A stretch of DNA of 32,000 nt, taken from NCBI GenBank assembly GCA_016432445.1, contig CP066689.1, positions 570,001 to 602,000 on the forward strand. Reading direction: 5' to 3'. This document shows positions 3,405 to 28,527 of this stretch, one piece after another. The stretch's first letter is position 1, and each line of letters begins with the position of its first letter. The DNA comes from Candidatus Saccharimonadota bacterium. Its GTDB lineage: Bacteria; Patescibacteriota; Microgenomatia; UBA1406; GWC2-37-13. The translations under genes and the position numbers were made by a program. The notes beneath the pieces were generated by a model. It ran no database searches. It saw only the letters and a program-made list of their open reading frames with translations, and was not told the origin of the DNA.

Positions 3405-4297
3405 TGACAGTCTATAACCAAATTTCAACAAATAAACTGAAGACGTACTTGATAATCTTTATTTTTATTCTGTTGATGTCAGGTTTCTTTTTTATAATTG
3501 GGAAATTTTTCCAAAATCCGGGTCTCTACTTTGCAATCGGTATATCTTTTTCTTTAATTTCGTCTCTTGGCAGTTATTTTTACTCCGATAAAATAGTGCT
3601 TTTTACAACAGGCGCAAAGCCAGCCAGTAAAAAAGAACACTTTAATTTTTATACCGTGACGGAAAATTTGGCTATTGCCACAGGCATGCCAATGCCTAAA
3701 TTGTATGTGATGGATGATCAGTCAATGAATGCTTTTGCGACAGGACGTGATCCTAAGCATGCGGTGGTAGCGGCAACTACTGGTCTTTTGGAAAGATTAG
3801 ACAGGGCCGAGCTTGAAGGAGTCATCGCTCATGAATTGTCGCACATAAAAAATTATGATATTTTGCTGGCTTCAATTGTCGCGGTACTTGTTGGAACTAT
3901 TGCTCTTGTTTCTGACTGGATTATGAGGAGTTTGTGGTGGAGAGGTAATGATGACCGAAGAGAAAACAGAAGTCCGCTACTATTTGTTCTATTAATAATA
4001 GCACTAATTTTAACTCCAATTGTGGCGACATTAATTCAACTTACCGTTTCAAGAAAGCGAGAGTTTTTGGCTGATGCAACCGGAGCTTTAATAACCCGTT
4101 ACCCTGAAGGATTGGCTCGCGCCCTTGAGAAAATATCAGGAGACAGGCATGTCTCAACTCACGCTACATCTTCAACCGCCCATCTTTTTATTGCTAATCC
4201 TTTTAAAAAAGGAAAAGGAACAGGCAGTTGGTTGGCTTCACTTTTTTCAACACATCCTCCAGTTGAAGAAAGAATTAGGATTTTAAGAAATCTATAA
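3404..4297 (+). CDS. htpX: M48 family zinc metalloprotease HtpX
   Basis: It has the HELSHIKNYD (HExxH) motif, multiple TM helices and the C-terminal STHPPVEERI motif. The start overlaps the lemA stop (TAATG). Confidence 0.9.
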   Translation: MTVYNQISTNKLKTYLIIFIFILLMSGFFFIIGKFFQNPGLYFAIGISFSLISSLGSYFYSDKIVLFTTGAKPASKKEHFNFYTVTENLAIATGMPMPKLYVMDDQSMNAFATGRDPKHAVVAATTGLLERLDRAELEGVIAHELSHIKNYDILLASIVAVLVGTIALVSDWIMRSLWWRGNDDRRENRSPLLFVLLIIALILTPIVATLIQLTVSRKREFLADATGALITRYPEGLARALEKISGDRHVSTHATSSTAHLFIANPFKKGKGTGSWLASLFSTHPPVEERIRILRNL

Positions 4298-4335
4298 CAA
4301 TTATAATTGTTATAACGATTATAACTGTTATATTT
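4293..4335. repeat. TTATAAC-type palindromic repeat
   Basis: There is a perfect 22-nt palindrome tataacaattataattgttata (4293-4314) overlapping the htpX stop, followed by acgattataactgttata. It shares the 15-mer gttataacgattata with 21194-21208. Confidence 0.75.
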
Positions 4336-5243: not shown

Positions 5244-5376
5244 GTGAAGATTGCCAAACAAGAGAGATCTTTGATCTGAGATCTTAGATTCTGGATATTT
5301 GATTTTCGACTATCGAGTATCTAAGATCAAAGATCTAACATCTAAGATCTTAATTCTCTTCTTTGGCAGGCTTCAC
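5244..5376. repeat. long imperfect hairpin with an AGATCTN heptamer-repeat core
   Basis: The outer stem is gtgaagattgccaaa (5244-5258) paired with tttggcaggcttcac (5362-5376), 13/15 bp. The core 5265-5350 is built of agatctt/tgatctg/agatctt/agattct units and their complements. Confidence 0.7.
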
Positions 5377-5430
5377 GAAAGGGAGAGAGTTTATTTACAT
5401 TCTGCACAGTTTTTCAAAGTGCTCGATTTG

Positions 5431-5473
5431 CAAAAAATAAAGCCATAGAAAGCTTTTATCTAGGGCTTTTTTA
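5431..5473 (-). terminator. intrinsic (bidirectional-looking) terminator after the receiver gene
   Basis: The stem is agccatag (5441-5448) paired with ctagggct (5460-5467), with one mismatch. It is flanked by an A-run (5432-5437) and a T-run (5467-5472). Confidence 0.5.
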
Positions 5474-5498
5474 TATGCTTATAGGGTATTATAGCAGA

Positions 5499-5981
5499 TT
5501 AATAAGCTCTTTCACCGTTTATGCGAGGTTGTCCATTTTTTGTTTCTTTGTTAATTTCGTCGTTTAATTCCTGATCAGGTTCCTCGTTTACTAATTTAAT
5601 CAGATCATCAATGTCGAAAGGTTTACGAAGAATATAATCTTTAGTTTCAGCAGTCATCTTTTCTATTTCTTTTTCAACTAAAGCTGTTAAAATCACCACT
5701 CTTCTGTCTTTCATGCATGGTTTATCAGGATTTGTTGTTGATTTAAAAAAATCCCACATACTTCCAGATGTTGAATCGACTGACCATAAGATTACGTTAG
5801 GATCAAAGCTTAATATAAAAGCTTCATATTCCGCTTCTTTTCCTAAAAAATCGCTGGTCATTGCCGATTGAACATTGTACCCTTCTGTATTAAGTAACAT
5901 CTCAATCATTTCTATTTCAGCCGGGTTATTGTCAAATACGGCTACTTTTTTCGCCGCCATAGTCGGCTGGTTAGGATCCAT
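5499..5981 (-). CDS. stand-alone CheY-like receiver domain protein (atypical acidic pocket)
   Basis: Receiver landmarks are KKVAVFDNN (DN instead of DD), ILWSVD (candidate phospho-Asp), VVILTA and LRKPFDIDDL (conserved Lys). There is no output domain. Confidence 0.7.
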   Translation of the reverse strand: MDPNQPTMAAKKVAVFDNNPAEIEMIEMLLNTEGYNVQSAMTSDFLGKEAEYEAFILSFDPNVILWSVDSTSGSMWDFFKSTTNPDKPCMKDRRVVILTALVEKEIEKMTAETKDYILRKPFDIDDLIKLVNEEPDQELNDEINKETKNGQPRINGERAY

Positions 5982-6084
5982 GATTTAACCCTACATTAAA
6001 CAAGTTAGGAAAAAATAGCAATACTGTAAGAATTAAGAAAGAAATCAATTTTTATCGGGAAATATTGTTATAATAATGAACACT

Positions 6085-8790
6085 ATGTGTGGGATTGCGG
6101 GATTTTACGGTTTCAGAAATGATGACCTTATCAAAAAAATCTCCAAGGAACTCGAGCATCGGGGACCTGATGGCGAGGGCTTCTTAATTGATGAAAAAGT
6201 AACTCTTCTTAATAGGCGATTGGCTATAATTGACCGCAAGGGCGGAGATCAGCCAATCTACAATGAGGATAAAACCCTGTCAGTGGTTTACAACGGAGAG
6301 ATTTACAACTACCAGGCACTACGAAAAGAGCTTGAGGAAAAGGGTCACAAGTTTTCAACGAATTCCGATACTGAAATAATAGTTCACGGTTATGAAGAAT
6401 GGAAAGACGAATGTTTTGACAAGTTTAATGGTATGTTTGCTATTGCGCTATATGATTTAAAAAATCAGGAACTCATCTTAGTTCGTGATCATTTCGGAAT
6501 AAAACCGCTGTATTATTCGATGATTAATGAAAATAATTTAATTTTTTCATCTGAAATAAAACCAATCATAAATTCCGGATTAATTAAAAAAGAGCCAAAC
6601 GATAAGATCATATACCGGTATCTTAATTACAGGGTGCATGACGATCAAAAGGAAACTTTTTTTAAGGATGTGCACAAACTGATGCCGGGGGAGATGATGG
6701 TGATTCAGGATTCAGGATTCAAGATTCAAGAATTTTCTAGTTTAGAAAAGACACTTATGTCATTTCGAACCCCGAGTTTATCGAGGGGTGAGAAATCTAG
6801 CGATAGCGCTTCGCTGGATTTCTCGCCTTCGGCTCGAAATGACAAAGATAGCATTATTGAGTTTCGTAATAAACTAACCGAGTCGATACGCTTAAGACTA
6901 ATTTCTGAAGTACCTGTGGGAACATGCTTATCTGGAGGCTTGGATTCTTCAACTGTTGTTGCGATAGTTAACAAACTTCTTAAGGAAAAAGTAAAAGAGG
7001 CTGAGTCAGTCGGAAAAAAACAAAATACTTTTTCGGCTGTTTTTCCAAACTCTTCTAATAATGAGGAAAAATATATTGATACATTAATTTCAAATTTTAA
7101 ATTTCAAATTTCAAATTATAAAATTTATCCTAAGGCAGAAGAATTTTTTGTTGAACTTGAAGATTTTTTAAAGACTCAGGAAGAGCCGACTATAAGTACT
7201 GGTCCTTATGCTCAGTATAAGGTCATGCAAGAGGCGCATAAGCAAGTTACTGTTCTTCTTGATGGCCAAGGCTCAGATGAGATGATGGCTGGATATTTGC
7301 CATATTACTTTGTTTATTTGAACCAGCTAAAAAAAGAAGGAAAATTTTTAACGCTAGTTAAAGAGATTATTGGATCATTAGATATTCTTACGAAATTTTT
7401 TTATCAAAAAACATTATTTTTTATTGGTTTTAAAAAATATATCTTGCCAAGATTATTGATGAATAAAGAGTTTGCGGAAAGATATAAAGAGCAAAGATTT
7501 GTAATGACAAATGACAATCTCAAAAAGCGGTTGATTGAAGATATTTTTCACAATAGCTTACCTTCACTGCTTCGTTATGAAGATAAAAACTCAATGCGTT
7601 TTTCTATTGAAGGACGCGTGCCTTTTTTGGATTTTAATCTTTTAAAATATATTTTTAGCTTGGATGATAAGGCAATTATTGATGGAGGTTGGAATAAAAA
7701 TATCTTAAGAGGAGCTGTCAAAGATCTTTTACCTGAGATTATAACCAAAAGACGAAATAAGATAGGGTTTACTACCCCCGAACAGGAATGGTTTTTAAAA
7801 ATGAAAAATAGGATTTATTCACTTTTCATGAGTGAATCTTTTGCAAAAAGACCATATTTTAATCAGCCGGAGATATTAAAAAAATTTCAAAAGTTTATCG
7901 AGGGCAAGACAGATGACACCATGGTTTTTTGGCGGATACTTAATTTGGAAATGTGGTTAAGAATTTTCTTTGACCCATCTCCAATGATTCATAAGACAAA
8001 AGAAAGATCAATATTCTCTCCTAATGCGGGTAAGAAATTAGAAATTACGATAGGGACAGGCCGCGACCTGTCCGTACAGCAATCGTATTTCCGTTTTCCA
8101 ATCAAAACTGAAATTTTTCAAAAAGGCGATGATGTTTCTAAAAAAGTTATCAAACATATAAATATATTCTTGCGGCAGTTTGAAAATAAAGTTCAGTTTA
8201 AAAAATTGCAGGACAAAGATTGGTTTATAGTTTTATCAGAAAAGATTGTAGCCATTTCTCAAGGCAGGTCTTACTTTATCTGGGATATTAAACCGGGGTT
8301 TTGGGCTAAGACTTTATCAAGGTTTGTTAAGAGAACTCCTTATGGTATTGGGTTGGGAAGTCCGTGGACAATGCAGTTGGCAATAGGCGAGATTGGGGTG
8401 GTTAGGGTAATATTAGCGTCAATATTAGGGGTATTAGGAAGATTGGTGGGGGCTAGGGGGATTTTTTATATAGTTGCCGGTAATAATATTAGGGCGATTG
8501 ATGGGCCTACAGAATATTCTCTTTATCCATCAAATGTCTCAGCAAAACTGGCTCCAAAAAATCCTCAAAAAGCCGCAAAGGCTATTCATGAAGATGTTAT
8601 AAAATCTTTACCCAAAACAAAAACTAAAAACTTTCAAGGTATAGTAATAATTGACGCTAATGATTTAGGAAGAAACGTTTTAGGCAACTCTACCAGATAC
8701 AATGACAGATTAGTTGAACAGATCTTTAAAGATAATCCAATGGGGCAATCCGGTGAACAGACTCCATTGACAATAGTTTATAGTATTTAG
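6085..8790 (+). CDS. fusion protein: glutamine-hydrolysing asparagine synthetase-like (AsnB family) N-terminal ~640 aa plus CofE-like (F420-0:gamma-glutamyl ligase family) C-terminal ~240 aa
   Basis: The MCGIAGF Ntn-amidotransferase nucleophile requires Cys as residue 2, so I start at ATG 6085 rather than 6076. The PP-loop is CLSGGLDSSTVVAI. The C-terminal part carries KGDDVSKKVI, IVLSEKIVAISQGR, GIVIIDANDLGR and NPMGQSGEQTPLTIV, which match my recollection of CofE-family motifs. Confidence 0.85.
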   Translation: MCGIAGFYGFRNDDLIKKISKELEHRGPDGEGFLIDEKVTLLNRRLAIIDRKGGDQPIYNEDKTLSVVYNGEIYNYQALRKELEEKGHKFSTNSDTEIIVHGYEEWKDECFDKFNGMFAIALYDLKNQELILVRDHFGIKPLYYSMINENNLIFSSEIKPIINSGLIKKEPNDKIIYRYLNYRVHDDQKETFFKDVHKLMPGEMMVIQDSGFKIQEFSSLEKTLMSFRTPSLSRGEKSSDSASLDFSPSARNDKDSIIEFRNKLTESIRLRLISEVPVGTCLSGGLDSSTVVAIVNKLLKEKVKEAESVGKKQNTFSAVFPNSSNNEEKYIDTLISNFKFQISNYKIYPKAEEFFVELEDFLKTQEEPTISTGPYAQYKVMQEAHKQVTVLLDGQGSDEMMAGYLPYYFVYLNQLKKEGKFLTLVKEIIGSLDILTKFFYQKTLFFIGFKKYILPRLLMNKEFAERYKEQRFVMTNDNLKKRLIEDIFHNSLPSLLRYEDKNSMRFSIEGRVPFLDFNLLKYIFSLDDKAIIDGGWNKNILRGAVKDLLPEIITKRRNKIGFTTPEQEWFLKMKNRIYSLFMSESFAKRPYFNQPEILKKFQKFIEGKTDDTMVFWRILNLEMWLRIFFDPSPMIHKTKERSIFSPNAGKKLEITIGTGRDLSVQQSYFRFPIKTEIFQKGDDVSKKVIKHINIFLRQFENKVQFKKLQDKDWFIVLSEKIVAISQGRSYFIWDIKPGFWAKTLSRFVKRTPYGIGLGSPWTMQLAIGEIGVVRVILASILGVLGRLVGARGIFYIVAGNNIRAIDGPTEYSLYPSNVSAKLAPKNPQKAAKAIHEDVIKSLPKTKTKNFQGIVIIDANDLGRNVLGNSTRYNDRLVEQIFKDNPMGQSGEQTPLTIVYSI
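6702..6734 (+). repeat. GATTCAN heptamer repeat arm read in-frame (IQDSGFKIQEF)
   Basis: The units are gattcag gattcag gattcaa gattcaa gaatt. Positions 6709-6734 are identical to 12635-12660 in gatB (26 nt). Confidence 0.9.
7086..7127 (+). repeat. AATTTCA heptamer repeat arm read in-frame (ISNFKFQISNYKIY)
   Basis: The units are aatttca aatttta aatttca aatttca aattata aaattta. This is the same repeat type as 12327-12359. Confidence 0.85.
8041..8091. repeat. GC-rich nested palindrome at the AsnB/CofE domain junction
   Basis: The outer stem is gaaattacgat (8041-8051) with atcgtatttc (8082-8091). The inner stem is ggacagg (8054-8060), loop ccgcga, then cctgtcc (8067-8073). It is read in-frame as EITIGTGRDLSVQQSYF. 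Confidence 0.75.
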
Positions 8791-8805
8791 TATGATATTG
8801 GACTA

Positions 8806-9330
8806 ATGGGAGAAACTGCACGAATAAAAGGGAGCGAACTTCTTAAAACTATGCCTAGTGGAATCAAATCACAAGGAATTTTACTTGTTGATAATGATCA
8901 CGGAATGAATTTATTAAATAAAATGAGATTTGAGGATGAAGGACTTAATGTAGTTGGAGAGGTAGATAATTATTCAAAAGCGCAAGCGCATGTATCCTTA
9001 GGATTATTAGGCATTGCCGTCATAATCTTAGATAGAGATCTTAAGAGCCCAGAGGGGAATGGAGTAGATATATATAAGAAAGTTCAACAAAATCCTGAAC
9101 TAAAAGTAATAACAATAGCCTGTTGTGGTCTCATAGGAGGGGAAAAAGAACCAGGTTATGGAGAATTTTTTGTTCCTAAACCACATGATGAAGAGGATAT
9201 GTTTTTGGCTGTTGCTAATGCCTTGACAGCTGCGCATGTTCTTCAACAAAAAAATAACTCTCATCAATTGGCGGAAAGAAACGAACAAATAAATGCAAAT
9301 CAATCTTCGAGTGAGGGTCTCGTAGCTTAG
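8806..9330 (+). CDS. stand-alone receiver-like domain protein (atypical)
   Basis: Receiver landmarks are ILLVDNDHG, VIILDRDL, VITIA and FVPKPHD. There is no output domain. The start could instead be the internal Met (MPSGIK). Confidence 0.6.
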   Translation: MGETARIKGSELLKTMPSGIKSQGILLVDNDHGMNLLNKMRFEDEGLNVVGEVDNYSKAQAHVSLGLLGIAVIILDRDLKSPEGNGVDIYKKVQQNPELKVITIACCGLIGGEKEPGYGEFFVPKPHDEEDMFLAVANALTAAHVLQQKNNSHQLAERNEQINANQSSSEGLVA

Positions 9331-9373
9331 TAACTAAAAAAACTTCAATGAAAGATTAATGATGTGGTAATAG

Positions 9374-9402
9374 TTGACTTTGACGGTTATTAATCCTATA
9401 AT
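9374..9402 (+). promoter_or_regulatory. near-consensus sigma70 promoter
   Basis: TTGACT (9374-9379), an exact 17-nt spacer, then TATAAT (9397-9402). It lies 145 nt upstream of ATG 9548. Confidence 0.6.
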
Positions 9403-9547
9403 ATGACCCCATGGTATATTCAGGAGCAGGCTGTCAATTATAGAAATCTTGCTGTAGCTGCCTGTTCTATCTCAAAAATTATCATGATTCTTAAGAGAGA
9501 TTAACAAACAAATTATTTTTATAGCTCTAAAAGCGAGAGATTCACTA

Positions 9548-10231
9548 ATGGAAACTAAAAAAGCAAAAGGCGATACTAATCCAATTATTTATATTTGTGG
9601 GTTATCTAAAGGTTGGGGGTTGATGCCAGCCCCTGAGTTTGATGCCGCGAGTAAATTAGAAAAGGGCATACTCCTACCCATGAAATGTTTGAGTTTAGAT
9701 TTAACTCCAGAAGATCAAACTGTAATTTCAAGATACGCCGCTCTAGCTTCCCAAGCGCTGCTGGGTTATGTTGAGGAAGCACGCTCAAGGAATCCTTCAG
9801 TACTCGTAGATAATTTGTTGATTGACCGAGAAAATTTAGTAAAAGAAGATCAAGACTTGGCAGATTTACAAAGAGAAGAAATTTTAGAAGATATATATGA
9901 CCTAAGGTCTGGATTAAGAAATTGCGAACATAGAGTAGCAATTGACGAATATAGATCAACAAAAGATTTATCACCATTTTATAACGAGGTGGCTAGGGAT
10001 AAAGAATTAGAAAGATTTTGTAATATGCTGGGTGAAAATATAAAAGTAACGGAATATGATGATTGTAGCCATCCTATAATGATTCCAACAGGAATTGATG
10101 GGGTAGCTATAAAAGTGGAATTTTTTAGAAAAGAAAAAGGTAGAACCAAAGTAAATTACGGGATTACTTATGGCCAAAGCGCAATAGATATATTAAAAGA
10201 TATGCCTCGATTATTACCAATACTTAAGTAG
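9548..10231 (+). CDS. hypothetical protein (227 aa)
   Basis: A long ORF with acidic, coiled-coil-like central segments. No family recognised. Confidence 0.6.
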   Translation: METKKAKGDTNPIIYICGLSKGWGLMPAPEFDAASKLEKGILLPMKCLSLDLTPEDQTVISRYAALASQALLGYVEEARSRNPSVLVDNLLIDRENLVKEDQDLADLQREEILEDIYDLRSGLRNCEHRVAIDEYRSTKDLSPFYNEVARDKELERFCNMLGENIKVTEYDDCSHPIMIPTGIDGVAIKVEFFRKEKGRTKVNYGITYGQSAIDILKDMPRLLPILK

Positions 10232-10330
10232 TTTTAACATTAAAAGAAATCAACACCGTACGTTGACTGGCCGTAATTTGGAAGTGATTAATTGAAAGTT
10301 TTCTCCTTAAAAATACGCTATAATTGCTTC

Positions 10331-10621
10331 ATGGCGAAGAAAACACTTACAAAAGAAGAAATTATTCATCTTTCAAAATTAGCTAATCTTTCTTTAACAG
10401 AAGAAGAGATTGAAATTTACGGATCACAGCTTAGTGAGATCTTAAGTTATATTGAACAACTGGAAGAGGTGGATACTTCAAAAGTTTCTTCAACTGCTCA
10501 AGTGACTGAACTTAAAAATGTGACAGAAGAAGATGAAGTTAAAGAAGAAAGATCAATCAAAGATTTAGCCGGGCTCAAGGTCAATAAAGATAATTATTTT
10601 ACCGTTAAGAGAATTCGTTAA
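10331..10621 (+). CDS. gatC: Asp/Glu-tRNA amidotransferase subunit C
   Basis: MAKKTLTKEEIIHLSKLANLSLTEEEIEIYGSQLSEILSYIEQLEEVDT is the classic GatC pattern. I use ATG 10331; the track start at 10292 is a TTG extension. gatA follows immediately. Confidence 0.85.
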   Translation: MAKKTLTKEEIIHLSKLANLSLTEEEIEIYGSQLSEILSYIEQLEEVDTSKVSSTAQVTELKNVTEEDEVKEERSIKDLAGLKVNKDNYFTVKRIR

Positions 10622-10622
10622 T

Positions 10623-12002
10623 ATGGATATTTTAAAAGCTTCAATCTCTAAACTTAGACAACTAATAAAGGATAATAAAATATCTTCGGAAGAGATTGTT
10701 GCACAAATTTCTGAAAGAATAAATAAGGAAAATCCAAAATTAAATGCATTGCTGACAGTTGTTGAAAAGCCTGAGGTTAATGAAAACATGAAAGATAAAC
10801 CGCTTTATGGAATTGCTTTTACTTTGAAAGATACTTATGTCACAAAGGGAATAAGAACAACAGCCGGTTCAAGATTGTTAGAGAATTATATTCCTCAATA
10901 CGACGCAACAGTTTATAAAAAACTAAAGGAAGCTGGGGCTGTCCTTATTGGAAAAACCAACTGCGATGCTTGGGGGCATGGATCCTCGACGGAAAATTCG
11001 GATTTTGGTGTTACCAAAAATCCATGGAATCAAGATTATGTTGCTGGAGGATCAAGTGGCGGATCAGCTGCAGCTGTTGCATCTCATTTGAGTCCATTTA
11101 GCATTGGAGAAGATACAGGAGGATCAATAAGACAACCGGCTTCTTTTTGTTCAGTAGTTGGACTAAAGGTTTCTTATGGCTTAGTTTCACGATATGGATC
11201 TATTGCTTATGCGTCGTCTTTAGATACAGTTGGTCCAATCACAAAAACCGTTGAGGACTGCGCTTTGGTACTTGATGTTATTGCTGGTAATGATAATCAG
11301 GATGCCACTACAAATCCGGCTAAACCATCGCATTATAGTAAATCCATAAACAACGATATAAAAGGTTTTAAGATTGGCATTCCCAAAGAATACTTTGTAG
11401 AGGGCATTGATAAAGAAGTTGCTGAACAAGTGGAGAATTCAATAAAGTTATTTAAGAAAATGGGATGTGAGATAGTTGATATAACGATGCCAATGACAAG
11501 ATATGCTTTGTCAACATATTATTTGATCGCCACAAGTGAGACCAGTTCTAATCTTGGCCGTTATGATGGAATAAGATATGGTAACTCAAGAAAAGATTTT
11601 GGAGCTGAAGCTAAAAGGAGAATAATGCTTGGTACTTTTACTCTGTCTGCTGGCTATTATGACGCCTATTACAAAAAAGCTACAAAAGTAAGGACACTTA
11701 TTAAAAATGATTTTGACCAAGCGTTTAAAAAAGTAGATATCATTTTAGCTCCAGTTTCACCAACTCCAGCTTTTAAAATAGGTGAAAAGGTTAATAATCC
11801 ATTACAAATGTATTTATCAGATATTCTTACAATTCCAGTTAATTTAGCTGGTATTCCTGCACTTTCTGTACCTGCCGGATTTACAAAATACAAGTTACCA
11901 GTGGGTGTGCAGCTTATCGGTAATCGATTTGAAGAGGAAAAATTACTAAACATTGGTCATAAATTCGAACAAGAACGGGGAGAGTTACCGTCAATCGATT
12001 AA
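10623..12002 (+). CDS. gatA: Asp/Glu-tRNA amidotransferase subunit A
   Basis: It has the amidase signature GGSSGGSAAAVA and GEDTGGSIRQPASFC. Its size (459 aa) and position between gatC and gatB fit. Confidence 0.95.
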   Translation: MDILKASISKLRQLIKDNKISSEEIVAQISERINKENPKLNALLTVVEKPEVNENMKDKPLYGIAFTLKDTYVTKGIRTTAGSRLLENYIPQYDATVYKKLKEAGAVLIGKTNCDAWGHGSSTENSDFGVTKNPWNQDYVAGGSSGGSAAAVASHLSPFSIGEDTGGSIRQPASFCSVVGLKVSYGLVSRYGSIAYASSLDTVGPITKTVEDCALVLDVIAGNDNQDATTNPAKPSHYSKSINNDIKGFKIGIPKEYFVEGIDKEVAEQVENSIKLFKKMGCEIVDITMPMTRYALSTYYLIATSETSSNLGRYDGIRYGNSRKDFGAEAKRRIMLGTFTLSAGYYDAYYKKATKVRTLIKNDFDQAFKKVDIILAPVSPTPAFKIGEKVNNPLQMYLSDILTIPVNLAGIPALSVPAGFTKYKLPVGVQLIGNRFEEEKLLNIGHKFEQERGELPSID

Positions 12003-12004
12003 CT

Positions 12005-13399
12005 ATGTATAAATATCAGCCGGTAATTGGTTTAGAAATACACGTAGAGCTTAAGACAAAATCCAAAATGTTTTGTCAGGACAGCGCTGATTATTTTGGA
12101 AAAAAACCGAACACTCATGTTTGTCCTGTCTGTTTAGGCTTACCTGGAGCTTTGCCCGTACCAAACAAAAAGGCCATTGAATGGACTATTCTTATTGGTC
12201 AGGCTTTAAACTGCTCAATAAACAAAGTTTCTAAATTTGACCGTAAACATTATTTCTATCCTGATTTACCCAAGGGATATCAGATTAGTCAGTATGACGA
12301 ACCAATCGCCAGCAATGGCTGGCTAAAATTTCAAATTTCAAATTTCAAATTTCAAATTAAGGAAAAAAAATTTAGGATTCACAGAGTTCATCTTGAAGAA
12401 GATACGGGTAAATTGATTCATTCTGGTTCAGATACATTAGTGGACTTCAATCGTTCTGGCGTTCCATTGGTTGAGATTGTGACTGAACCTGATTTTGATA
12501 ATTCTGATGACGTTAAAAGATTCCTCGAAGAACTTCACACGATTATTCGTTACCTCGGTGTTTCTGATGCGGATATGGAAAAAGGGAGTATGAGACTTGA
12601 GCCGAATATCTCTCTTCGCAAAATTTCGATTCAAGATTCAGGATTCAAGATTCAAGAATTACCAAATTACAAAGTCGAGGTGAAGAATATTAATTCATTT
12701 AATTTTGTAAAACGGGCGATTGAGTATGAGATTAAACGCCAAACTGAGATTCTAGAAAAAGGGGAGACTCCAGCACAAGAAACCAGAGGTTTTGATAGCG
12801 TTAAAGGAATTACTTATAGCCAGCGGTCAAAAGAAGAAGCCCATGATTACCGCTATTTTCCCGAGCCCGACATTCCCCCGCTTGAGTTTACATATAAAGA
12901 GATTGAGGATATAAAAAAAAAGCTTCCCGAACTGCCAAGTGATAAAGAAAAAAGGTTGATAAAGGAGTATAGGTTAAAAGCTCAGGATGCGTTTATATTG
13001 ACAAGAGACTTGAGAATTGCAGATTACTTTGAAAAAGTTACTGATGAGTTTAATAAATTAATGCTGGTTCAGGATAAGGCATCAGTAGACATTGAAAAAC
13101 AACAATCATTAGGTCAAACTATTGCTAATTTAATAGTGAATAAAAGATTATCTACTTCACTAGATCCGGAAGAATTTGCAAAAAAAGCAATAACTTCAAC
13201 AGTAACTTATATTGCAGATAGAGAAAAAATGGATAAAGCAGTGAGTAAGGTAATCGATGATTTTCCTAAAGCAGTCGAAGATTATAAAGCAGGAAAAACA
13301 AATTCGATTATGTTTTTGGTTGGTCAAGTAATGAAAGAAATGAAAGGACAAGTAGACGCCAATACTGTTAAGAAAAAACTGATTAAAATATTAAAATAA
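12005..13399 (+). CDS. gatB: Asp/Glu-tRNA amidotransferase subunit B
   Basis: Conserved blocks are VIGLEIHVELKTKSKMF, KFDRKHYFYPDLPKGYQISQ, HLEEDTGK, DFNRSGVPLVEIV and DYRYFPEPD, plus the C-terminal GatB/YqeY tail. Confidence 0.95.
   Translation: MYKYQPVIGLEIHVELKTKSKMFCQDSADYFGKKPNTHVCPVCLGLPGALPVPNKKAIEWTILIGQALNCSINKVSKFDRKHYFYPDLPKGYQISQYDEPIASNGWLKFQISNFKFQIKEKKFRIHRVHLEEDTGKLIHSGSDTLVDFNRSGVPLVEIVTEPDFDNSDDVKRFLEELHTIIRYLGVSDADMEKGSMRLEPNISLRKISIQDSGFKIQELPNYKVEVKNINSFNFVKRAIEYEIKRQTEILEKGETPAQETRGFDSVKGITYSQRSKEEAHDYRYFPEPDIPPLEFTYKEIEDIKKKLPELPSDKEKRLIKEYRLKAQDAFILTRDLRIADYFEKVTDEFNKLMLVQDKASVDIEKQQSLGQTIANLIVNKRLSTSLDPEEFAKKAITSTVTYIADREKMDKAVSKVIDDFPKAVEDYKAGKTNSIMFLVGQVMKEMKGQVDANTVKKKLIKILK
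12327..12359 (+). repeat. AATTTCA heptamer repeat arm read in-frame in gatB (KFQISNFKFQIK)
   Basis: aatttca x4 followed by aatta; direct reading. Confidence 0.9.
12628..12660 (+). repeat. GATTCAN heptamer repeat arm read in-frame in gatB (IQDSGFKIQEL)
   Basis: The units are gattcaa gattcag gattcaa gattcaa gaatt. There is 26-nt identity with 6709-6734, in the same reading phase. Confidence 0.9.
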
Positions 13400-13402: not shown

Positions 13403-13449
13403 GATTCAAGATTCACGATTCATGAATCTTAAATCTTGAATCATGAATC
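13403..13449. repeat. GATTCA-type palindromic hairpin between gatB and dnaE
   Basis: gattcaagatt (13403-13413) pairs with aatcttgaatc (13432-13442). The inner stem is gattca/tgaatc (13417-13428). An extra atgaatc unit supplies the ORF-track ATG at 13443. Confidence 0.85.
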
Positions 13450-13460
13450 AAAAAATAAAT

Positions 13461-16400
13461 ATGTCATTTGTTCATCTTCATGTTCATACAGAGTATTCAA
13501 TGCTTGACGGTATGGCCCGTATTTCTGATGTTTTGAAAAAGGCAAAAAACCTAGGAATGCCAGCGGTTGCTATCACGGATCATGGAGCGCTGTATGGAGC
13601 TTTTAAATTTTTTATAAAAGCAAAAGAGATAGGGATTAAACCCATTATTGGAGTTGAGGTTTATAAAGCAAAAAACTCGCGTCATGATAAACAGCCCGGC
13701 GAACATCGTGACCAATATCATTTAGTTCTTTTGGCCAAAAATCTTACCGGTTATCAAAATCTTTTGAAAATTGTTAGCATTGCTCATCTCGAAGGATTTT
13801 ATTATAAACCAAGAGTAGATTTTGAAGTTCTGGAAAAATATCATGAAGGGATTATTGCTTTGTCAGCCTGCATGAATGGCGAGATATCTTCATTACTCCT
13901 TGATAATCAAAAAAAAGCAGCGGAAAAACTGCTGGAAAAATATATCTCTATCTTTGGACATGATTTTTATATAGAAATACAAAGACATCCTAATGTTGAG
14001 AAGCTAGAAAGTCTGAATAAAGAATTAATAGCTTTATCAAGAAAGTTTGGTGTTCCGTTGGTGGCAACTAATGATGTGCACTACTTAAATGTTGAGGACG
14101 CTTACGCTCAGGAAATTTTGCTGTGTATTCAAACGCAAAGGGCAATTTTTGAAAAAAACAGACCTCTTTCAATGATTGATGTACCTGATTATTATTTCAA
14201 ATCAGCAGAGGAAATGAAAGGGCAGTTTCTAGACATTCCTGAGGCAATTGATAATACCATTAAAATAGCTAATATGTGTAATGTCGAGATACCTCATGGA
14301 AAGCTTATACTGCCGCAATTTCCTTTAGAAAAAAAACAAAAGCCTTCGGAATATTTAAGAGAAATGGTTAACAAAAAAAAGTCGCGGGTGGCTAATTTTC
14401 CTCAAGAAGAAATTAATAAACGCATTGATTATGAACTAAGCGTAATTTCACAAAAAGGATATGATAATTACTTTCTTATAGTTCAGGATTTTGTTAACTG
14501 GGCGAAAGAGCAGGGCATAGCTGTAGGGCCGGGAAGAGGTTCTGCCGCAGGTTCATTAGTATCCTATATTTTAGAGATAACCGATATTAATCCTTTCGAG
14601 TACAGTTTGCCTTTTGAAAGATTCCTAAACCCGGAAAGGCCATCACCGCCTGATATAGATATTGATTTTGCTGACATAAGGCGAGATGAAGTCCTAGAGT
14701 ATGTAAGGAAGAAATATGGAGAAGATAAAGTCGCACAGATTATCACTTTTGGCACCATGGAGTCACGAATGTCTGTGCGTGACGTATCTAGAGCTTTAGG
14801 TATGTCTTATTCACAAGGAGACAGAATAGCCAAGATGATACCTCCCCCAAAACAAGGCTTTCATTTAAGTTTAGATCAAGCAATAGTAGATACTCCTCAG
14901 TTAAAACTAGCTTACAATGGTGAGGCTGAGACAAAGAAAGTTCTAGATATTGCTATGAAATTAGAAGGTCTGCCGAGGCACTCATCAGTTCACGCAGCTG
15001 GTGTTGTTATAGCCGATCAGCCTTTAACAGAATATGTACCTTTACAAAAAGAATCAAAGGAAGGAAGAATTATTACCCAATATGATATGTACTCTCTTGA
15101 TCTTAATAGTGTGCCTGATAAAGCTTTAGGCTTAATGAAAATAGATTTTTTAGGACTAAGGAATTTAACTATTCTTGAGGAGGCTGTTGAGTATGCTTAT
15201 CAATCAGCAGGAAAAAAAATTAATATTCATCAGATTACAATGGATGATAAGAAAGCATATGCGCTGATAGCGCGAGGAGAAACAGTAGGCATATTCCAAC
15301 TTGAGTCACCTGGCATGAAGCGTTTAGCCAAAGATATTAAACCGACTAAAATAAGTGATGTTGTAGCTATGGTGGCTTTATATAGACCTGGTCCAATGGA
15401 CCTTATACCAACTTTTATTGAGTCAAAAAATAATGCCAAAAAAATAAGATATCTTCATAAAGACCTTAAACCAATTCTCGAGGAGACCTATGGTGTGCCT
15501 GTTTATCAGGAGCAGGTTATGTCTATTGCTCACGATATGGCTGGTTATTCTATGGGAGAGGCTGACAGCCTAAGGCGCGCGATGGGAAAAAAGAAAAAAG
15601 AATTGATGAAAAAAGAAAAAGAAAAATTTATTAAAGGAGTGATCACAAAAGGCTATACCAAAAGCCTAGCTGAGAATATTTTTAATTTTATAGAAAAGTT
15701 TGCGTCGTACGGTTTTAATAAACCTCACTCTGCCTGCTATGGTCTCATTGCTTACTGGACTGCTTACATGAAAGCAAATTATCCGATCGAGTTTATGACT
15801 GCTCTTTTGTCGGCTGAACTTCAGGGAGTGGCGGGGCCAATGAGAGAGCAAAAAATGGCTCAAGCTATTGAAGAGTGCCGCAGGATGGAGATCACAGTAT
15901 TCCCGCCCGATATAAATAAATCGCAGTATAGTTTTTCTATAGAAAATGATTCAATCAGGTTTGGTTTGTCAGCTATCAAAAATGTCGGACAAGCGGCTAT
16001 AGAGTCAATACTTGACGCCAGAAAAGGAGGCAATTTTTTAAATTTTAGCGATTTTCTGTCACGAGTTGATTTACGAAAAGTTAACAAAAAAACAATTGAA
16101 AGTTTAGTTAAAGCGGGCGCTTTGGATAAATTTGCAAACAGAGCTACTTTGTTATCAAACTATCCTCGTTTACTTAAAGAAATTTCTGATAAAAAAGCTG
16201 ATTTTGAAAAAGGACAATTCGCTTTATTTGGGCAAGAAAACACAGTAAACCAAGCAAAAGATGATTTTGTTGAGGTTGAAGAGTTCAGCGAGGAAGAGCT
16301 TAATTCAATGGAAAAAGAGATTATAGGATTTCTTATTACAAAAAATCCGCTGACTCAGTTTAAGCAAATTATGGATAAAAAAGTTAATAAGAAAATTGGC

Positions 16401-16682
16401 GATCTTCAACCATCTGACGCTAATAAAACATATATTTTAGGAGGTGTGGTCAGCGGAAAAAAGATAATCAAAACAAAAAAAGATGGACAGGAAATGGCTT
16501 TTTTTAATCTTTTTGATGAAACAGGTTCTCTTGAAGGTGTTCTTTTCCCTCGAATATATCAAAAGCTTAAAAATATGATAGCTATAAATAATGTAGTATT
16601 AATAAAGGGAAAGGTTAATGATAGAGAAGGTAGAATTAGTATACTGGTTGATAACGCAGCCTTGTTAAATGGCCGGAAATGA
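13461..16682 (+). CDS. dnaE: DNA polymerase III alpha subunit
   Basis: The PHP N-terminus MSFVHLHVHTEYSMLDG matches canonical DnaE starts, so I prefer ATG 13461 over the repeat-embedded ATG 13443. It also has the GPGRGSAAGSLVSY palm motif, an HhH region and an OB-fold tail. Confidence 0.95.
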   Translation: MSFVHLHVHTEYSMLDGMARISDVLKKAKNLGMPAVAITDHGALYGAFKFFIKAKEIGIKPIIGVEVYKAKNSRHDKQPGEHRDQYHLVLLAKNLTGYQNLLKIVSIAHLEGFYYKPRVDFEVLEKYHEGIIALSACMNGEISSLLLDNQKKAAEKLLEKYISIFGHDFYIEIQRHPNVEKLESLNKELIALSRKFGVPLVATNDVHYLNVEDAYAQEILLCIQTQRAIFEKNRPLSMIDVPDYYFKSAEEMKGQFLDIPEAIDNTIKIANMCNVEIPHGKLILPQFPLEKKQKPSEYLREMVNKKKSRVANFPQEEINKRIDYELSVISQKGYDNYFLIVQDFVNWAKEQGIAVGPGRGSAAGSLVSYILEITDINPFEYSLPFERFLNPERPSPPDIDIDFADIRRDEVLEYVRKKYGEDKVAQIITFGTMESRMSVRDVSRALGMSYSQGDRIAKMIPPPKQGFHLSLDQAIVDTPQLKLAYNGEAETKKVLDIAMKLEGLPRHSSVHAAGVVIADQPLTEYVPLQKESKEGRIITQYDMYSLDLNSVPDKALGLMKIDFLGLRNLTILEEAVEYAYQSAGKKINIHQITMDDKKAYALIARGETVGIFQLESPGMKRLAKDIKPTKISDVVAMVALYRPGPMDLIPTFIESKNNAKKIRYLHKDLKPILEETYGVPVYQEQVMSIAHDMAGYSMGEADSLRRAMGKKKKELMKKEKEKFIKGVITKGYTKSLAENIFNFIEKFASYGFNKPHSACYGLIAYWTAYMKANYPIEFMTALLSAELQGVAGPMREQKMAQAIEECRRMEITVFPPDINKSQYSFSIENDSIRFGLSAIKNVGQAAIESILDARKGGNFLNFSDFLSRVDLRKVNKKTIESLVKAGALDKFANRATLLSNYPRLLKEISDKKADFEKGQFALFGQENTVNQAKDDFVEVEEFSEEELNSMEKEIIGFLITKNPLTQFKQIMDKKVNKKIGDLQPSDANKTYILGGVVSGKKIIKTKKDGQEMAFFNLFDETGSLEGVLFPRIYQKLKNMIAINNVVLIKGKVNDREGRISILVDNAALLNGRK

Positions 16683-21159: not shown

Positions 21160-22620
<1,461 letters not shown>

Positions 22621-22624: not shown

Positions 22625-22678
22625 GATTCACGATTCATGAAACATGATTCATGAATCTTAAATCGTGAATCATAAATC
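22625..22678. repeat. GATTCA-type palindromic hairpin between atpD and atpC
   Basis: gattcacgatt (22625-22635) pairs with aatcgtgaatc (22661-22671). The inner stem is gattca/tgaatc (22646-22657). Confidence 0.85.
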
Positions 22679-23112: not shown

Positions 23113-25143
23113 ATGACTTTAATTATTGTTGAATCACCGACTAAGGCTAGGACATTTAACCGTATATTAAAAGGTGAGGACTACTATGTATTTGCAACCA
23201 TGGGACACATAAGAGACCTTCCAGCAAGCGCATTATCTATTGATTATGCCCATAAGTTTAAGCCTAATTACCAAATTATAAAAAATAAACAGAAAACCGT
23301 TGATCAGCTCATGAAACTGGCTAAACAAAATGATGAGATTATTTTAGCGACAGATCCTGATCGTGAAGGGGAATCTATCGCGTATCATGCGGCTTATTTA
23401 ATAGGTCTGATAAAAGAGAAGTGGCCTGAGTTTAAGATCGATAAAAAACATCCACTCAAAAGAATCGTTTTTCACGAGATTACTCCTCATGCTTTAAAAG
23501 AAGCGTTAGAGCATCCAAGCACATTAAGATTGGACTTAGTTAAGGCTCAGCAGGCAAGGCGGATCTTAGATAGGGTAGTTGGCTATGAGATCTCTCCCCT
23601 ACTTTGGAAAAAAATGGGAAAAAACTGGCTTTCAGCCGGTAGAGTTCAGTCAGTAGCTTTGCGGCTTGTTGTCGAAAGAGAGAAAGAAATTAGAGTCTTT
23701 AAGGACGAAGGTTATTATCAGATTTATGGAAACTTTAATAAAAAAGAACCATTAAAGGCGAAGCTTGTTTCAAAAGATCAAGTTCCTTACGAACAGAAAT
23801 TCACTTTGCATTTGTTTGCCGGAGAATATCAGTACACCAAAACAACAATCGAAAAATCTAATGTCGATGAAATTAAAAAGAACGCAGAGACTGATAAATA
23901 TATCGTAAAGGAGATTAAAGAAGAAATTAAACCTAAGTATCCTCCACCTCCGTTTACAACTTCTTTGCTTCAGCAGGAATCTTTTCACCGCTTTGGGTTC
24001 TCATCAAGAATGACTATGAGAATAGCTCAGGATCTTTATGAAAGAGGTTTAATTACTTATCATCGAACTGATTCTTTTAATTTATCAACTCAGTTTGTTT
24101 TTAAAGCGAAAGATTTTATAGAAAAAACTTTTGGCAAAGAGTATGCCCTTGAAAAACCAAGAGGCTTTCGAACAAAATCAAAGATGGCTCAGGAAGCGCA
24201 CGAGGCTATAAGACCAACGCATTTGGAGAAATCAGCTGACTCCATGGCAGTAGATAAAAAAATCACTCAAAACCATAAAAAAGTTTACAAACTTATATTT
24301 GACCGCGCTCTTTCGACACAAATGAAAGAAGCTCAAGTTAAACATATCAAAATAGTTATTGCCGGTAAAAAAGGATATGCGTTTGAGTCTGAGGTGCAGC
24401 AGGTTATTTTTGATGGTTTTTTAAAAGTTCTTAATCCAGAATATGCAGGAAAAAAACAAAGCTTAGCTCGTCTTAAAGAAAATGATCCAGTTGATTTGCT
24501 ATCATTGGAAGTTCAAGAATGTAAAACTAATCCCCCGCCGAGGTTTAATGAAGCCTCACTTATTAAAATATTAGAAGAAAAAGGAATTGGTAGGCCATCT
24601 ACTTACGCGCCTATTATTTCTCTTATTCAGGACAAAAATTATGTTGAAAAGGAGTTTAGATATTTCGTACCGACTAAACTTGGAGAGGTAATCTCGAATT
24701 ATTTGGCCGAGTCTTTTCCGGATATTTTTTCACTTGAGTTTACAGCCCAGATGGAGCAAAGCTTAGATGAAATTGCTGATGGGCAAAAAGATATGGTTCA
24801 AACCTTGTCTGATTTTTATAATCCTTTTGAGAAACATTTAAAGATTATGAAGCTTGACAAAAAAACAATAGATGTAGAGGAAGTGGTTGATGAAAAATGC
24901 GAGAAGTGCGCAAGTGCTATGGTTGTCCGTTATTCAAAGTTTGGTAAATTTATGGCCTGCAGTAAATATCCTCAATGTAAATTTACTAAACCTTTTTTGA
25001 ATTTTGTAAAAGATAAATTTTGCCCAGAGTGTGGAGGTAGGATGACAGCCAGAATGACTAAAACCAGGAAAAGATTCTACGGATGCGAAAATTATCCGAA
25101 GTGTAAATATTCGTCTTGGACACTCAAGCCAACAAAGAAATGA
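23113..25143 (+). CDS. topA: DNA topoisomerase I
   Basis: It has the Toprim motifs LIIVESPTKA and DPDREGE, the active-site Tyr context ITYHRTDS, and C-terminal Cys4 zinc ribbons (CEKC..C..C; CPECGG..C..C). Confidence 0.95.
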   Translation: MTLIIVESPTKARTFNRILKGEDYYVFATMGHIRDLPASALSIDYAHKFKPNYQIIKNKQKTVDQLMKLAKQNDEIILATDPDREGESIAYHAAYLIGLIKEKWPEFKIDKKHPLKRIVFHEITPHALKEALEHPSTLRLDLVKAQQARRILDRVVGYEISPLLWKKMGKNWLSAGRVQSVALRLVVEREKEIRVFKDEGYYQIYGNFNKKEPLKAKLVSKDQVPYEQKFTLHLFAGEYQYTKTTIEKSNVDEIKKNAETDKYIVKEIKEEIKPKYPPPPFTTSLLQQESFHRFGFSSRMTMRIAQDLYERGLITYHRTDSFNLSTQFVFKAKDFIEKTFGKEYALEKPRGFRTKSKMAQEAHEAIRPTHLEKSADSMAVDKKITQNHKKVYKLIFDRALSTQMKEAQVKHIKIVIAGKKGYAFESEVQQVIFDGFLKVLNPEYAGKKQSLARLKENDPVDLLSLEVQECKTNPPPRFNEASLIKILEEKGIGRPSTYAPIISLIQDKNYVEKEFRYFVPTKLGEVISNYLAESFPDIFSLEFTAQMEQSLDEIADGQKDMVQTLSDFYNPFEKHLKIMKLDKKTIDVEEVVDEKCEKCASAMVVRYSKFGKFMACSKYPQCKFTKPFLNFVKDKFCPECGGRMTARMTKTRKRFYGCENYPKCKYSSWTLKPTKK

Positions 25144-25217
25144 TTCACGATTCATGATGCATGATTCATGAATCTTCTTGAATCCTGAATCGTGAATCTT
25201 GAATCAAGTGTTTTTTT
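25142..25217 (+). terminator. GATTCA-type nested hairpin followed by T7: likely topA terminator
   Basis: gattcacgattca (25142-25154) pairs with tgaatcgtgaatc (25186-25198). The inner stem is gattca/tgaatc (25163-25174), followed by ttttttt (25211-25217). The element begins inside the topA stop codon. Confidence 0.7.
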
Positions 25218-26914: not shown

Positions 26915-26975
26915 GATTCAAGATTCACGATTCAGGATTCAAGAAGTTTTATTCATGAATCATTAATCATGAATC
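26915..26975. repeat. GATTCA-type imperfect hairpin between pyrG and rplS
   Basis: The left arm is gattcaa gattcac gattcag gattcaa. The right arm is ttcatgaatcattaatcatgaatc, which contains the ORF-track ATG at 26969. Confidence 0.75.
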
Positions 26976-26989
26976 TAGTTTCAAAAAAT

Positions 26990-27328: not shown

Positions 27329-27332
27329 TTTC

Positions 27333-27698: not shown

Positions 27699-27700
27699 AA

Positions 27701-27797
27701 AATTCCAAAATCCAAATTTCAAATATCAAAAGATTTTGTAATTTAGATTTTGAGCTTTGGATTTGTTTTGTTATTTGAATTTTGACATTCGGATTTA
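27701..27797. repeat. AAATCCA/CAAAT-type composite hairpin after yraN
   Basis: The left arm is ttccaaaatccaaatttcaaatatcaaaag, and complementary arms follow. Positions 27773-27796, reverse-complemented, match 2765-2788 at 23/24 nt. Confidence 0.8.
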
Positions 27798-27824
27798 ATT
27801 TTATCGAGGGGGGGTGAAAAAATA

Positions 27825-28475: not shown

Positions 28476-28495
28476 CTTGCTTAGAACTCTCAAAA

Positions 28496-28527
28496 ACATA
28501 TGCGCCTTTACGGTGCATATGTTTTTT
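28496..28527 (+). terminator. intrinsic terminator
   Basis: acatatgc (28496-28503) pairs with gcatatgt (28515-28522), followed by tttttt. Confidence 0.75.

Follow-up and report, generated by a model that had tools for sequence, protein, structure and literature searches.

A stretch of bacterial DNA of 32,000 nucleotides (GenBank assembly GCA_016432445.1, contig CP066689.1, positions 570,001 to 602,000), referred to here as the window, has a GC content of ~35% and carries a gatB gene in which two blocks of tandem heptanucleotide repeats are translated in frame. The gene occupies positions 12005–13399 of the plus strand and encodes a protein of 464 amino acids with the Pfam domains GatB_N (7e-114) and GatB_Yqey. 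The product is 100% identical to QQG43836.1 of Candidatus Roizmanbacteria, and its closest matches in the Protein Data Bank are the GatB proteins of Aquifex, Thermotoga, and S. aureus (1e-124 to 3e-101). An AlphaFold2 (AF2) model based on an alignment of 120 homologues had a predicted local distance difference test (pLDDT) value of 87.7, and a Foldseek search with this model confirmed the GatB fold. The gene is preceded by gatC (10292–10621) and gatA (10623–12002) and followed by dnaE (13443–16682). All features that define a GatB are present: the catalytic cradle of GatB_N with HxEED, the helical domain, the YqeY tail, and the gatC–gatA–gatB operon.

The first block, module M1 (12327–12359, plus strand), is (AATTTCA)x4 followed by AATTA and is read as KFQISNFKFQIK at a linker termed site 1 (residues 108–119). 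The second, module M2 (12628–12660, plus strand), consists of GATTCAA GATTCAG GATTCAA GATTCAA GAATT and is read as (S)IQDSGFKIQEL at site 2 (residues 208–219). A preliminary description of this DNA had reported both blocks, and direct reading and Tandem Repeats Finder (TRF) place them in frame at the same coordinates, with a period of 7 in each case (4.7 copies and 100% matches for M1; 4.3 copies and 91% matches for M2). Each block also lies, as that description had it, between invariant GatB motifs. Among the 120 homologues, the flanking invariant columns are G105 and H129, E131, E132, D133, and T134 for M1, and N201, S203, and K227, N228, I229, N230, and S231 for M2. The 7-residue periodicity of the peptides was rightly attributed to the fact that three units of 7 nt make 21 nt. 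RNA folding gave no structure at the coding blocks (z score of +0.96 for M1 and −0.27 for M2), and neither has a partner arm.

The linkers that hold the blocks are longer than those of other GatB proteins. In pairwise alignments with the Aquifex, Thermotoga, and S. aureus enzymes, the protein has 4/5 additional residues at site 1 and 8 at site 2. A profile scan with the GatB alignment gave an outgroup of 57 diverse bacteria (among the matches listed, mostly from distant phyla, with 61% as the best identity), in which the commonest lengths were 16–17 residues at site 1 and 10 residues at site 2 (39/57), compared with 21 and 18 here. The excess length claimed from the sequence is thus borne out, as orthologues from unrelated bacteria, both the solved GatB structures and the 57 bacteria, are shorter at both sites. 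The alignment places M1 in the hairpin NGW...(K)RIRRxHxEED and M2 between PNISxR and (x)VExKNxNSF. The AF2 model of site 1 consists of a strand (102–112), a turn (113–117), and a second strand (118–140) with pLDDT values of 85–97, and M1, reaching from the last part of the first strand to the first part of the second, forms the outer end and the turn of this long, confidently modeled β hairpin of the cradle domain. The catalytic residues His129, Glu131, Glu132, and Asp133 are located at least 10 residues beyond M1 on the second strand. M2 is modeled as a loop with one helical turn (pLDDT ~70), with strands 196–206 and 224–227 on either side, and corresponds to the β11–β12 connection. In S. aureus GatB, the pocket that reads the U1–A72 pair is formed by a 3_10 turn (183–186), α3, and the β12–α3 and β13–β14 loops (PMC2811023). 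M2 lies outside these published pocket elements (PMC2811023), and the equivalent of the 3_10 turn in the present protein, DMEKG (190–194), is unchanged. Judging from the topology of the model, the tips of M1 and M2 would be directed away from the active center, distal to HxEED and to the 3_10-turn/U1–A72 pocket.

Near-identical copies of both modules are found 5–6 kb upstream, in a plus-strand gene (6076–8790) that encodes an AsnB-like/F420-ligase-like protein. The twin of M2 (6702–6734) is identical at 32/33 positions, is read in the same frame as IQDSGFKIQEF, and lies in the interdomain linker; the two M2 copies thereby share the peptide IQDSGFKIQE. The twin of M1 (7086–7118) is also identical at 32/33 positions, but it is read in another frame as ISNFKFQISNY, within the Asn_synthase domain, and its array continues to 7126. 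Since the M1 twins are read in different frames as phase-shifted peptides, their likeness resides at the DNA level and not in a selected peptide. The single mismatch in each twin pair is synonymous. The M1 twin adds a net 2 residues to the AsnB-like protein relative to two orthologues. M2 has a further relative outside genes, the left arm of an intergenic hairpin (26915–26947), which matches it at 30/33 positions and has the same end, GATTCAA-GAA. A third gene, encoding PolX (943–2766), carries an in-frame array of the AAAATTC type on the plus strand (1849–1902; 7.9 units, 54 nt) in the β hairpin of the thumb, where it adds 15/16 residues at the hairpin tip relative to T. thermophilus PolX (3au2). 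In-frame copies thus occur in several unrelated genes, namely gatB, the AsnB-like gene, and PolX in the window, and GT2, AsnB-like, and gatB genes in relatives. Each 33-nt block provides 11 codons, yet the gatB loops are only 4–9 residues longer than those of the comparators and the AsnB-like M1 twin only 2 residues longer, which indicates that M1 and M2 partly replaced native codons. The preliminary description had read the blocks as non-coding repeat DNA absorbed into loops of what it took to be an essential enzyme without breaking the frame. The frame is indeed kept and the loops are lengthened, but the blocks are no simple inserts, native sequence having been partly replaced, and GatB is no isolated case, as the AsnB-like protein, PolX, and the GatBs of relatives carry arrays too.

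The AsnB-like protein is a conserved protein of ~900 residues in which an asparagine synthase (GATase and Asn_synthase domains) is fused to an F420-0:γ-glutamyl-ligase-like domain; besides the window copy, it is encoded in contigs of two relatives, L081 (3158–5860) and L085 (3532–6135). The fusion gene lies upstream of gatCAB in all three, adjoining it in L085 and separated from it by two genes in the window and L081.

The blocks belong to a repeat family that is strongly enriched in the window. Two double-unit patterns of 13–14 nt were counted with up to two mismatches, and expectations were derived from shuffled sequences. The pattern GATTCAAGATTCA occurs 31 times against 2.3 expected (the largest value in any shuffle was 6), and AATTTCAAATTTCA occurs 23 times against 3.0 expected. 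Among arrays of at least three copies with periods of 4–15, period 7 alone is enriched (3 versus 0; shuffles, 0), and TRF detected 14 non-overlapping period-7 arrays, whereas the remaining periods between 5 and 12 together gave 7. When 84 loci were compared, the period-7 density was highest in the window and in L081. The family occupies 12 loci in the 32 kb. Five are coding; the other seven are situated immediately 3′ of genes in the intergenic DNA, which makes up a small part of the window. These seven, starting at 2772, 5264, 13403, 22625, 25142, 26915, and 27700, are inverted heptamer arrays, and six of them form hairpins (−15 to −30 kcal/mol; z scores of −3.1 to −4.8). The hairpins 3′ of plus-strand genes start 0–12 nt past the stop codon, and they probably act as terminators or stabilizers of mRNA 3′ ends, a role suggested by their position and folding. 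The claim that both motif types of the gatB blocks also build arms of intergenic hairpins is therefore correct. The description of the two heptamers as different is not, since each is one mismatch away from a lineage-wide AAATTCA-type motif and they are variants of a single superfamily.

Four of the hairpins are of the GATTCAN type. The first is an inverted GATTCAN/NTGAATC hairpin 4 nt past the gatB stop codon (13403–13450; −14.9 kcal/mol, z = −3.8), and the others lie 5 nt past the atpD stop codon (22625–22678; −18.8 kcal/mol, z = −3.5), over the topA stop codon (25142–25205; −30.4 kcal/mol, z = −4.8), and after the CTP synthase gene (26915–26975; −23.6 kcal/mol, z = −4.7). A hairpin of the AATGTCA/AAATTCA type lies 6 nt past the PolX stop codon (2772–2818; −17.2 kcal/mol, z = −4.8), and one of a third heptamer type, GAGATCT/ATCTAAG, is found at 5264–5350 (−30.3 kcal/mol, z = −3.1 on the minus strand). 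The remaining element, 2 nt past the stop codon of a UPF0102 gene (27700–27796), consists of an AAATTYC-type array followed by two inverted copies and folds weakly (z = −1.6); its right arm is duplicated as a 32-nt direct repeat (27734–27796; two copies, 80% identical). The topA stop codon (TGA, 25141–25143) is contained in the first unit, ATGATTC, of its hairpin, which is followed by T7. This is the only clear T7 run, and T-runs follow only some of the hairpins.

The coding arrays are restricted in their orientation. A period-7 array passes through all three reading frames, with three units restoring the frame, so that any TAA, TAG, or TGA in the cyclic unit becomes a stop codon. Across seven genomes, 29/29 coding arrays are free of stops on the sense strand and 22/29 have a stop on the antisense strand. 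Genes hold one arm orientation only; for most motifs, a TGA or TAA is present on the opposite strand. Stop avoidance also demands that the junction from a T-run to an A-run be TCA, which accounts for part of the common ...TTCA core.

The same sites are occupied across the lineage. The 120 best GatB homologues, 63–69% identical and from Roizmanbacteria/Microgenomates, have lengths of 12–38 residues at site 1 and 10–45 residues at site 2. Site 1 exceeds 17 residues in 81/120 and site 2 exceeds 11 in 95/120, while site 2 is minimal in 25 and site 1 in 11 of the 120. Many of these proteins have a 7-residue periodicity in other sequences, for example VKSQKSIVKSQ, ITNDELRITN, FEIRNSRFEI, and KFKIQSSKFKV, and the identity at a lag of 7 residues in site 2 is 0.16 compared with 0.06–0.09 at other lags. 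All six relatives analyzed at the DNA level, which are syntenic with the window, carry heptanucleotide arrays in gatB, located at site 1, site 2, or both. A third GatB site in the helical domain (approximately residues 341–368) contains arrays in four of the six (L081, 11087–11138; L082, 11068–11087; L084, 1983–2015; L086, 11023–11070) and none in the gatB of the window. Arrays in relatives are also found at the equivalent linker of the AsnB-like protein and in GT2 genes. Their motifs (AAGTTCA, AAATTCG, AAAATCA, AGATCAA, AATTACC, and AAATCCC) are all one or two mismatches from AAATTCA, and the mean pairwise distance between motifs is 1.7–1.95, compared with 3.5 for composition-matched random heptamers. 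In an alignment of two GatBs with 82% identity, the sole gap is a 15-residue indel at site 2, and the arrays at sites 1 and 3 are kept with substitutions. The hairpin in the gatB–dnaE spacer is clearly built of heptamers in L082 (z = −4.4); this does not hold for L086 or L083. Inserts that look repeat-derived but lack the heptamer period were seen at similar sites, namely at site 2 of protein P0074, in the AsnB-like gene of L081 (3158–5857; alignment A2 columns 154–182), and at site 1 of L021; examples are ...IASSLSAPRNDN..., RQQISHSSGFPRARRGHPKSFETDVFDSH, and, in a Chloroflexi GatB, PLPPLPKGEGNRLLPSEGEGLGMR.

Independent support for the arrays came from Logan assemblies of runs SRR12113420–432, from the same organism, in which contigs were retrieved via gatA, dnaE, and the last gene of the window and compared at the consensus level; exact look-ups of P0001 and PolX yielded no record. 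Contigs L088 (window 5321–12354) and L089 (7088–12354) are 100% identical to the window and both end after the fourth unit of M1; L088 spans both AsnB-like twins (6702 and 7086) unchanged. L087 corresponds to 26939–32000, and the hairpin at 13403–13450 is identical in six independent contigs (L092–L097). At least six runs gave no unit-number variants at the consensus level for the arrays at 6702, 7086, 13403, and 27700 and for M1 up to unit 4. As the independent contigs are 100% identical to the window where they overlap it, the arrays are real. The assembly question raised in the preliminary description is thereby answered for the first four units of M1, which two independent contigs contain, whereas M2 is present in one assembly, the retrieved contigs missing 12355–12822. 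Short-read contigs end inside heptamer arrays at 12354, 26939, 5321, 7088, and 22676 (the end of L092), which could be caused by common periodic k-mers or by hidden length heterogeneity. Other contigs stop at the conserved YRYFPEPD region, and L092 is chimeric, its positions 1–282 being the gatB of a co-occurring relative joined at that region.

These data bear on the explanation that the gatB blocks are artefactual or not expressed, through an error of assembly or polishing, a programmed −1 frameshift, or an intervening sequence removed from the RNA or the protein. The ends of the Logan contigs inside arrays are in its favor in so far as they show that the repeats disturb assembly, and the sequence A_AAT_TTC at 12340–12346 fits the slippery pattern X_XXY_YYZ in frame. 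The −1 frame, however, stops after six codons and has no downstream structure, and a programmed frameshift was rejected. The arrays are shorter than a read, M1 is traversed through four units by two independent contigs and both AsnB-like twins by one of them at 100% identity, the ORF is uninterrupted, and arrays recur at these sites in relatives that come from unrelated samples. The 11 codons have no intein or intron features either. With this evidence, an artefact is hardly credible.

We lean toward the explanation that the gatB blocks are in-frame members of a genome-wide A+T-rich heptanucleotide family, tolerated only in their stop-free orientation at permissive loop tips, probably copied between loci, and near-neutral. 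The intergenic form of the family is the inverted array of ~3–5 units per arm that forms a hairpin right after a stop codon. Coding units of ~33 nt (11 codons) were most likely copied from another array by template switching or gene conversion–like repair at A/T-rich microhomology, partly overwriting the native loop codons, and the direction for the gatB blocks would then run from non-coding to coding DNA. Purifying selection would keep only those events that change the length by a net multiple of three and fall in structurally permissive places, in GatB the β-hairpin tip of the cradle domain and the β11–β12 connection. The peptides, of the form F-K-x-Q-x-S-x, alternate hydrophobic and polar residues with turn formers, so that they may do no more than extend the hairpin or loop. 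After fixation, the arrays would behave as ordinary sequence, subject to point substitution and occasional large indels, and would be nearly neutral passengers that create new loop sequence rather than a regulatory device. Copying is favored because the near-identical twins have equal lengths and common end deviations, and because slippage by a single unit in gatB is a frameshift. Family membership, in-frame reading, recurrence at the same sites, the stop-free orientation, and stability across samples are demonstrated by the observations above; the copying mechanism and its direction, neutrality, and the role of the hairpins are deduced from them.

Several points weigh against this explanation. 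No intermediate or donor–recipient pair that would prove copying was found, and there is neither a target-site duplication nor a conserved end at the four coding modules and 81 metagenome arrays. Because any two perfect arrays of one motif must be alike, the argument from the twins rests mainly on their equal length and common end deviations. A+T richness and the TCA junction rule can together account for much of the likeness among motifs, and the mean motif distance within genomes (1.74) is only marginally smaller than that between genomes (1.95; p ~0.05), so that this comparison cannot decide between dispersal and convergence. The native flanks KKFRI (AAA AAA TTT AGG ATT) and ELPNY (GAATTACCAAATTAC) are already motif-like, and conserved LPNY codons seem to have been the starting point of the AATTACC array in L081, which favors local seeding. 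Finally, M2 is supported by one assembly.

Some of these points also support a purely local origin, in which A/T-rich loop codons for Lys, Ile, Phe, and Asn gave rise to every array on the spot through replication slippage, no DNA was moved, and the similarity between arrays reflects composition and the stop constraint. Besides the motif-like native codons, the L081 array that adjoins LPNY codons, and the lack of target-site duplications or conserved flanks, there is the need to avoid stops, which confines the motifs to an A(n)T(m)C pattern. The unit numbers of the coding arrays cluster near 4–4.7 and 6.3–7.9, that is, at 1 modulo 3, as expected for surviving expansions of one seed by 3k units. 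Heptanucleotide repeats are also the most abundant class of long simple sequence repeats (SSRs), which has been ascribed to polymerase slippage (Mrazek 2007, as cited in PMC4692102 and PMC4679880). Local slippage would, however, have required a three-unit jump in one step each time, as a one-unit change shifts the gatB frame. Nor does it readily explain why the 33-nt modules of two genes and a hairpin arm agree in length and in their end deviation, why the intergenic arms, which need keep no frame, match them in motif and approximately in unit number, or why unit number is constant in at least six samples. A purely local origin thus appears unlikely, although copying and local slippage are inseparable with the present data.

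Motifs of this type are also found beyond the lineage. More than 120 metagenome contigs, with GC contents of 0.3–0.7, contain exact (GATTCAN)x4 arrays, and 29 of 88 arrays lie within stop-free stretches of at least 150 codons. Pfam searches identified genuine proteins that carry the array in their reading frame, including GyrB, PrmC, QueG, TrpE, a GT1, an IleRS-like enzyme, and an AMP-binding enzyme; the last shows a small net length change relative to a solved homologue, and the GyrB alignment is uncertain. Examples among contigs L098–L177 are L144 (3839–3865), L123 (1292–1318), L111 (6860–6886, minus strand), and L117 (1846–1879). In 81 metagenome arrays, no conserved flanks or ends were detected, only decaying repeat units. 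An apparent preference for four units was dismissed as an effect of the lower bound of the search pattern. As the scan covered no control motif, no claim is made that GATTCAN or AAATTCA is special. A synthetic query, (FKFQISN)4(FKIQDSG)4, retrieved from the protein database only ORFs of 44–88 residues that cover long arrays of other taxa; the E-value cutoff of this search excluded short in-frame blocks. Short ORFs with FKFQISN, FKIQDSG, or FKFQVSS repeats (P0127, P0147, Desulfonema magnum; P0142, Flavobacterium fontis) represent long AATTTCA-type arrays in distant phyla and are probably spurious gene calls.

Such a distribution could be the work of a dedicated small mobile element or of an enzyme-driven writing process (transposase/RAYT-like, reverse transcriptase, or repair polymerase) that inserts units of about four heptamers, the hairpins being full elements and the coding copies half-elements. 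The discreteness of the 33-nt modules fits this idea, and the end of M2, GATTCA-A-GAATT, resembles the hairpin center GATTCA-T-GAATC minus its TGA. Consistent with it are also the more than 120 metagenome contigs, in some of which the array is in frame and has flanks unlike the motif, and the FKFQISN/FKIQDSG repeat ORFs in distant taxa. The spread of GATTCAN may nevertheless reflect only the size of the collection, no control heptamer having been scanned. No gene for a transposase, RAYT, or reverse transcriptase adjoins any copy in the window, and the copies have no target-site duplication, terminal inverted repeat, or conserved non-repeat end. A full element in a gene would moreover carry stops, and the insertion of a half-element would need a special mechanism. 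We therefore regard a dedicated element as quite improbable. A miniature inverted-repeat transposable element was rejected, as the four coding modules have neither terminal inverted repeats nor target-site duplications and the 81 metagenome arrays have no conserved flanks. A more far-reaching conjecture is that modules of about four heptamers (GATTCAN and AAATTCA type) are written into the genomes of many bacterial phyla by an undescribed sequence-specific process, which could be a minimal mobile element or an activity of repair or reverse transcription. It would give rise to hairpins at gene ends and, at a steady rate, to in-frame loops in essential enzymes. This is speculative and in our view rather improbable; if true, the process would be a major source of protein length variation in bacteria of the candidate phyla radiation (CPR) such as Roizmanbacteria.

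The blocks might instead have a function of their own, either as a selected β-hairpin extension for a CPR-specific contact in GatCAB or the transamidosome, or as a DNA or RNA signal such as a protein-binding heptamer array or a translational pause. Proteins of the CspB type bind heptamer repeats (cited in PMC4679880), and the occupation of the same three GatB sites in most relatives, the persistence of arrays between GatBs that are 82% identical, and the synonymous nature of both twin mismatches would agree with selection. The sequences and lengths are hypervariable, however, with site 2 minimal in 25/120 relatives and site 1 in 11/120. M1 is read in different frames in two genes, the motifs differ between genomes at orthologous sites, the coding blocks have no RNA structure, and the low model confidence at site 2 is what a floppy loop would give. 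A dedicated function is thus very doubtful.

The preferred explanation, copying of near-neutral repeat units, has partial parallels in known repeat systems. The Rickettsia palindromic elements (RPEs), reportedly described by Ogata et al. in 2000, are said to lie between genes and in frame inside unrelated conserved genes. RPEs are palindromes of ~100–150 bp that are inserted whole and add a peptide at tolerated positions, with the function kept. The present family resembles them in that repeat DNA is both intergenic and in frame in several unrelated genes, but its coding copies are 33–54 nt long, single-armed, non-folding, and 7-periodic, they partly replace native codons, and the host belongs to the CPR. 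The intergenic copies, but not the coding ones, are comparable with repetitive extragenic palindromes and bacterial interspersed mosaic elements (REP/BIME), which are short imperfect palindromes just downstream of genes, present in many copies, likely with a role at mRNA 3′ ends, and mobilized by the REP-associated tyrosine transposase (RAYT). They share the position of extragenic palindromes 3′ of genes but differ in their heptamer substructure and in the existence of coding copies, and no RAYT (IS200/IS605-like) transposase was found among the window ORFs scanned with Pfam. Phase-variable (contingency) SSRs likewise place a tandem unit that is not a multiple of three in an ORF, where slippage by one unit shifts the frame. 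In contrast to contingency loci, the hosts here are core housekeeping genes and not surface or restriction genes, unit numbers do not vary in at least six samples, and the arrays are kept between species with substitutions.

A close resemblance is to heptanucleotide SSRs and short tandemly repeated repetitive sequences (STRRs), such as the STRRs of Calothrix and Nostoc, GGGAATC in Xanthomonas, and GGGGAYT in Nostoc (PMC4692102), and TAACTGA in Beggiatoaceae (PMC4679880). Over-representation of heptamer SSRs was reported by Mrazek et al. (2007), as cited in those two papers; their origin is described there as unexplained, with polymerase slippage as a proposal (PMC4692102, PMC4679880). The present family has tandem 7-nt units at many dispersed loci, one motif family per genome, and a mostly intergenic location, often within tens of bases of a stop codon; it lacks unit-number polymorphism at the consensus level in at least six runs. 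In contrast to the G-rich heptanucleotide SSRs, its motifs are A+T-rich and cannot form G-quadruplexes, and its arrays stand in frame in conserved enzymes at recurrent sites, whereas G-rich SSRs are reported to be under-represented in coding regions. The TAACTGA repeats contain stops in one orientation. The intergenic copies also differ from SSRs and STRRs in being inverted, hairpin-forming arrays. Palindromic amphipathic repeat coding elements (PARCELs) are longer, belong to surface proteins, and code on both strands (PMC2996958); they have in common with the present family the translation of repeat DNA in unrelated genes and taxa, and unlike them the arrays here are of 7-nt units in enzyme loops. 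The gatB case combines heptanucleotide SSRs with RPE-like in-frame insertion in a CPR lineage. It is distinctive in having inverted hairpin arrays outside genes, single-arm modules inside them, and a re-use of loop tips. A literature search for heptamer repeats in CPR or Roizmanbacteria and for the literal repeat strings found no paper describing such a case.

The locus shows a route to new peptide segments in conserved enzymes, in which repeat DNA of a non-coding type is read at a few permissive loop tips that are re-used across the lineage. It offers a concrete reason for some of the unusual variation in length among CPR proteins, and it charts positions at which GatB, PolX, and the AsnB-like enzyme naturally tolerate insertions. 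It is also a tractable case for an old unsolved question, the abundance and spread of bacterial heptanucleotide repeats: where a unit that is not a multiple of three sits in an essential gene, survival needs a three-unit change or pasting as a block. For annotators of CPR genomes, such arrays are a source of broken short-read assemblies and spurious ORFs, both of which should be expected.

Two further observations concern other repeats and sites in the window. GATTC is an instance of the methylation site GANTC, but an explanation of the arrays by GANTC methylation was discarded, as GANTC is not depleted outside the arrays (91 observed versus ~115 expected in total). A second repeat family, with a 9/18-nt period and partly palindromic (TATAACTGT / TATAACAAT), is present at 4293–4332 and 21161–21208; one copy overlaps the stop codon of an M48 peptidase gene, and the other starts 2 nt past the atpG stop codon.

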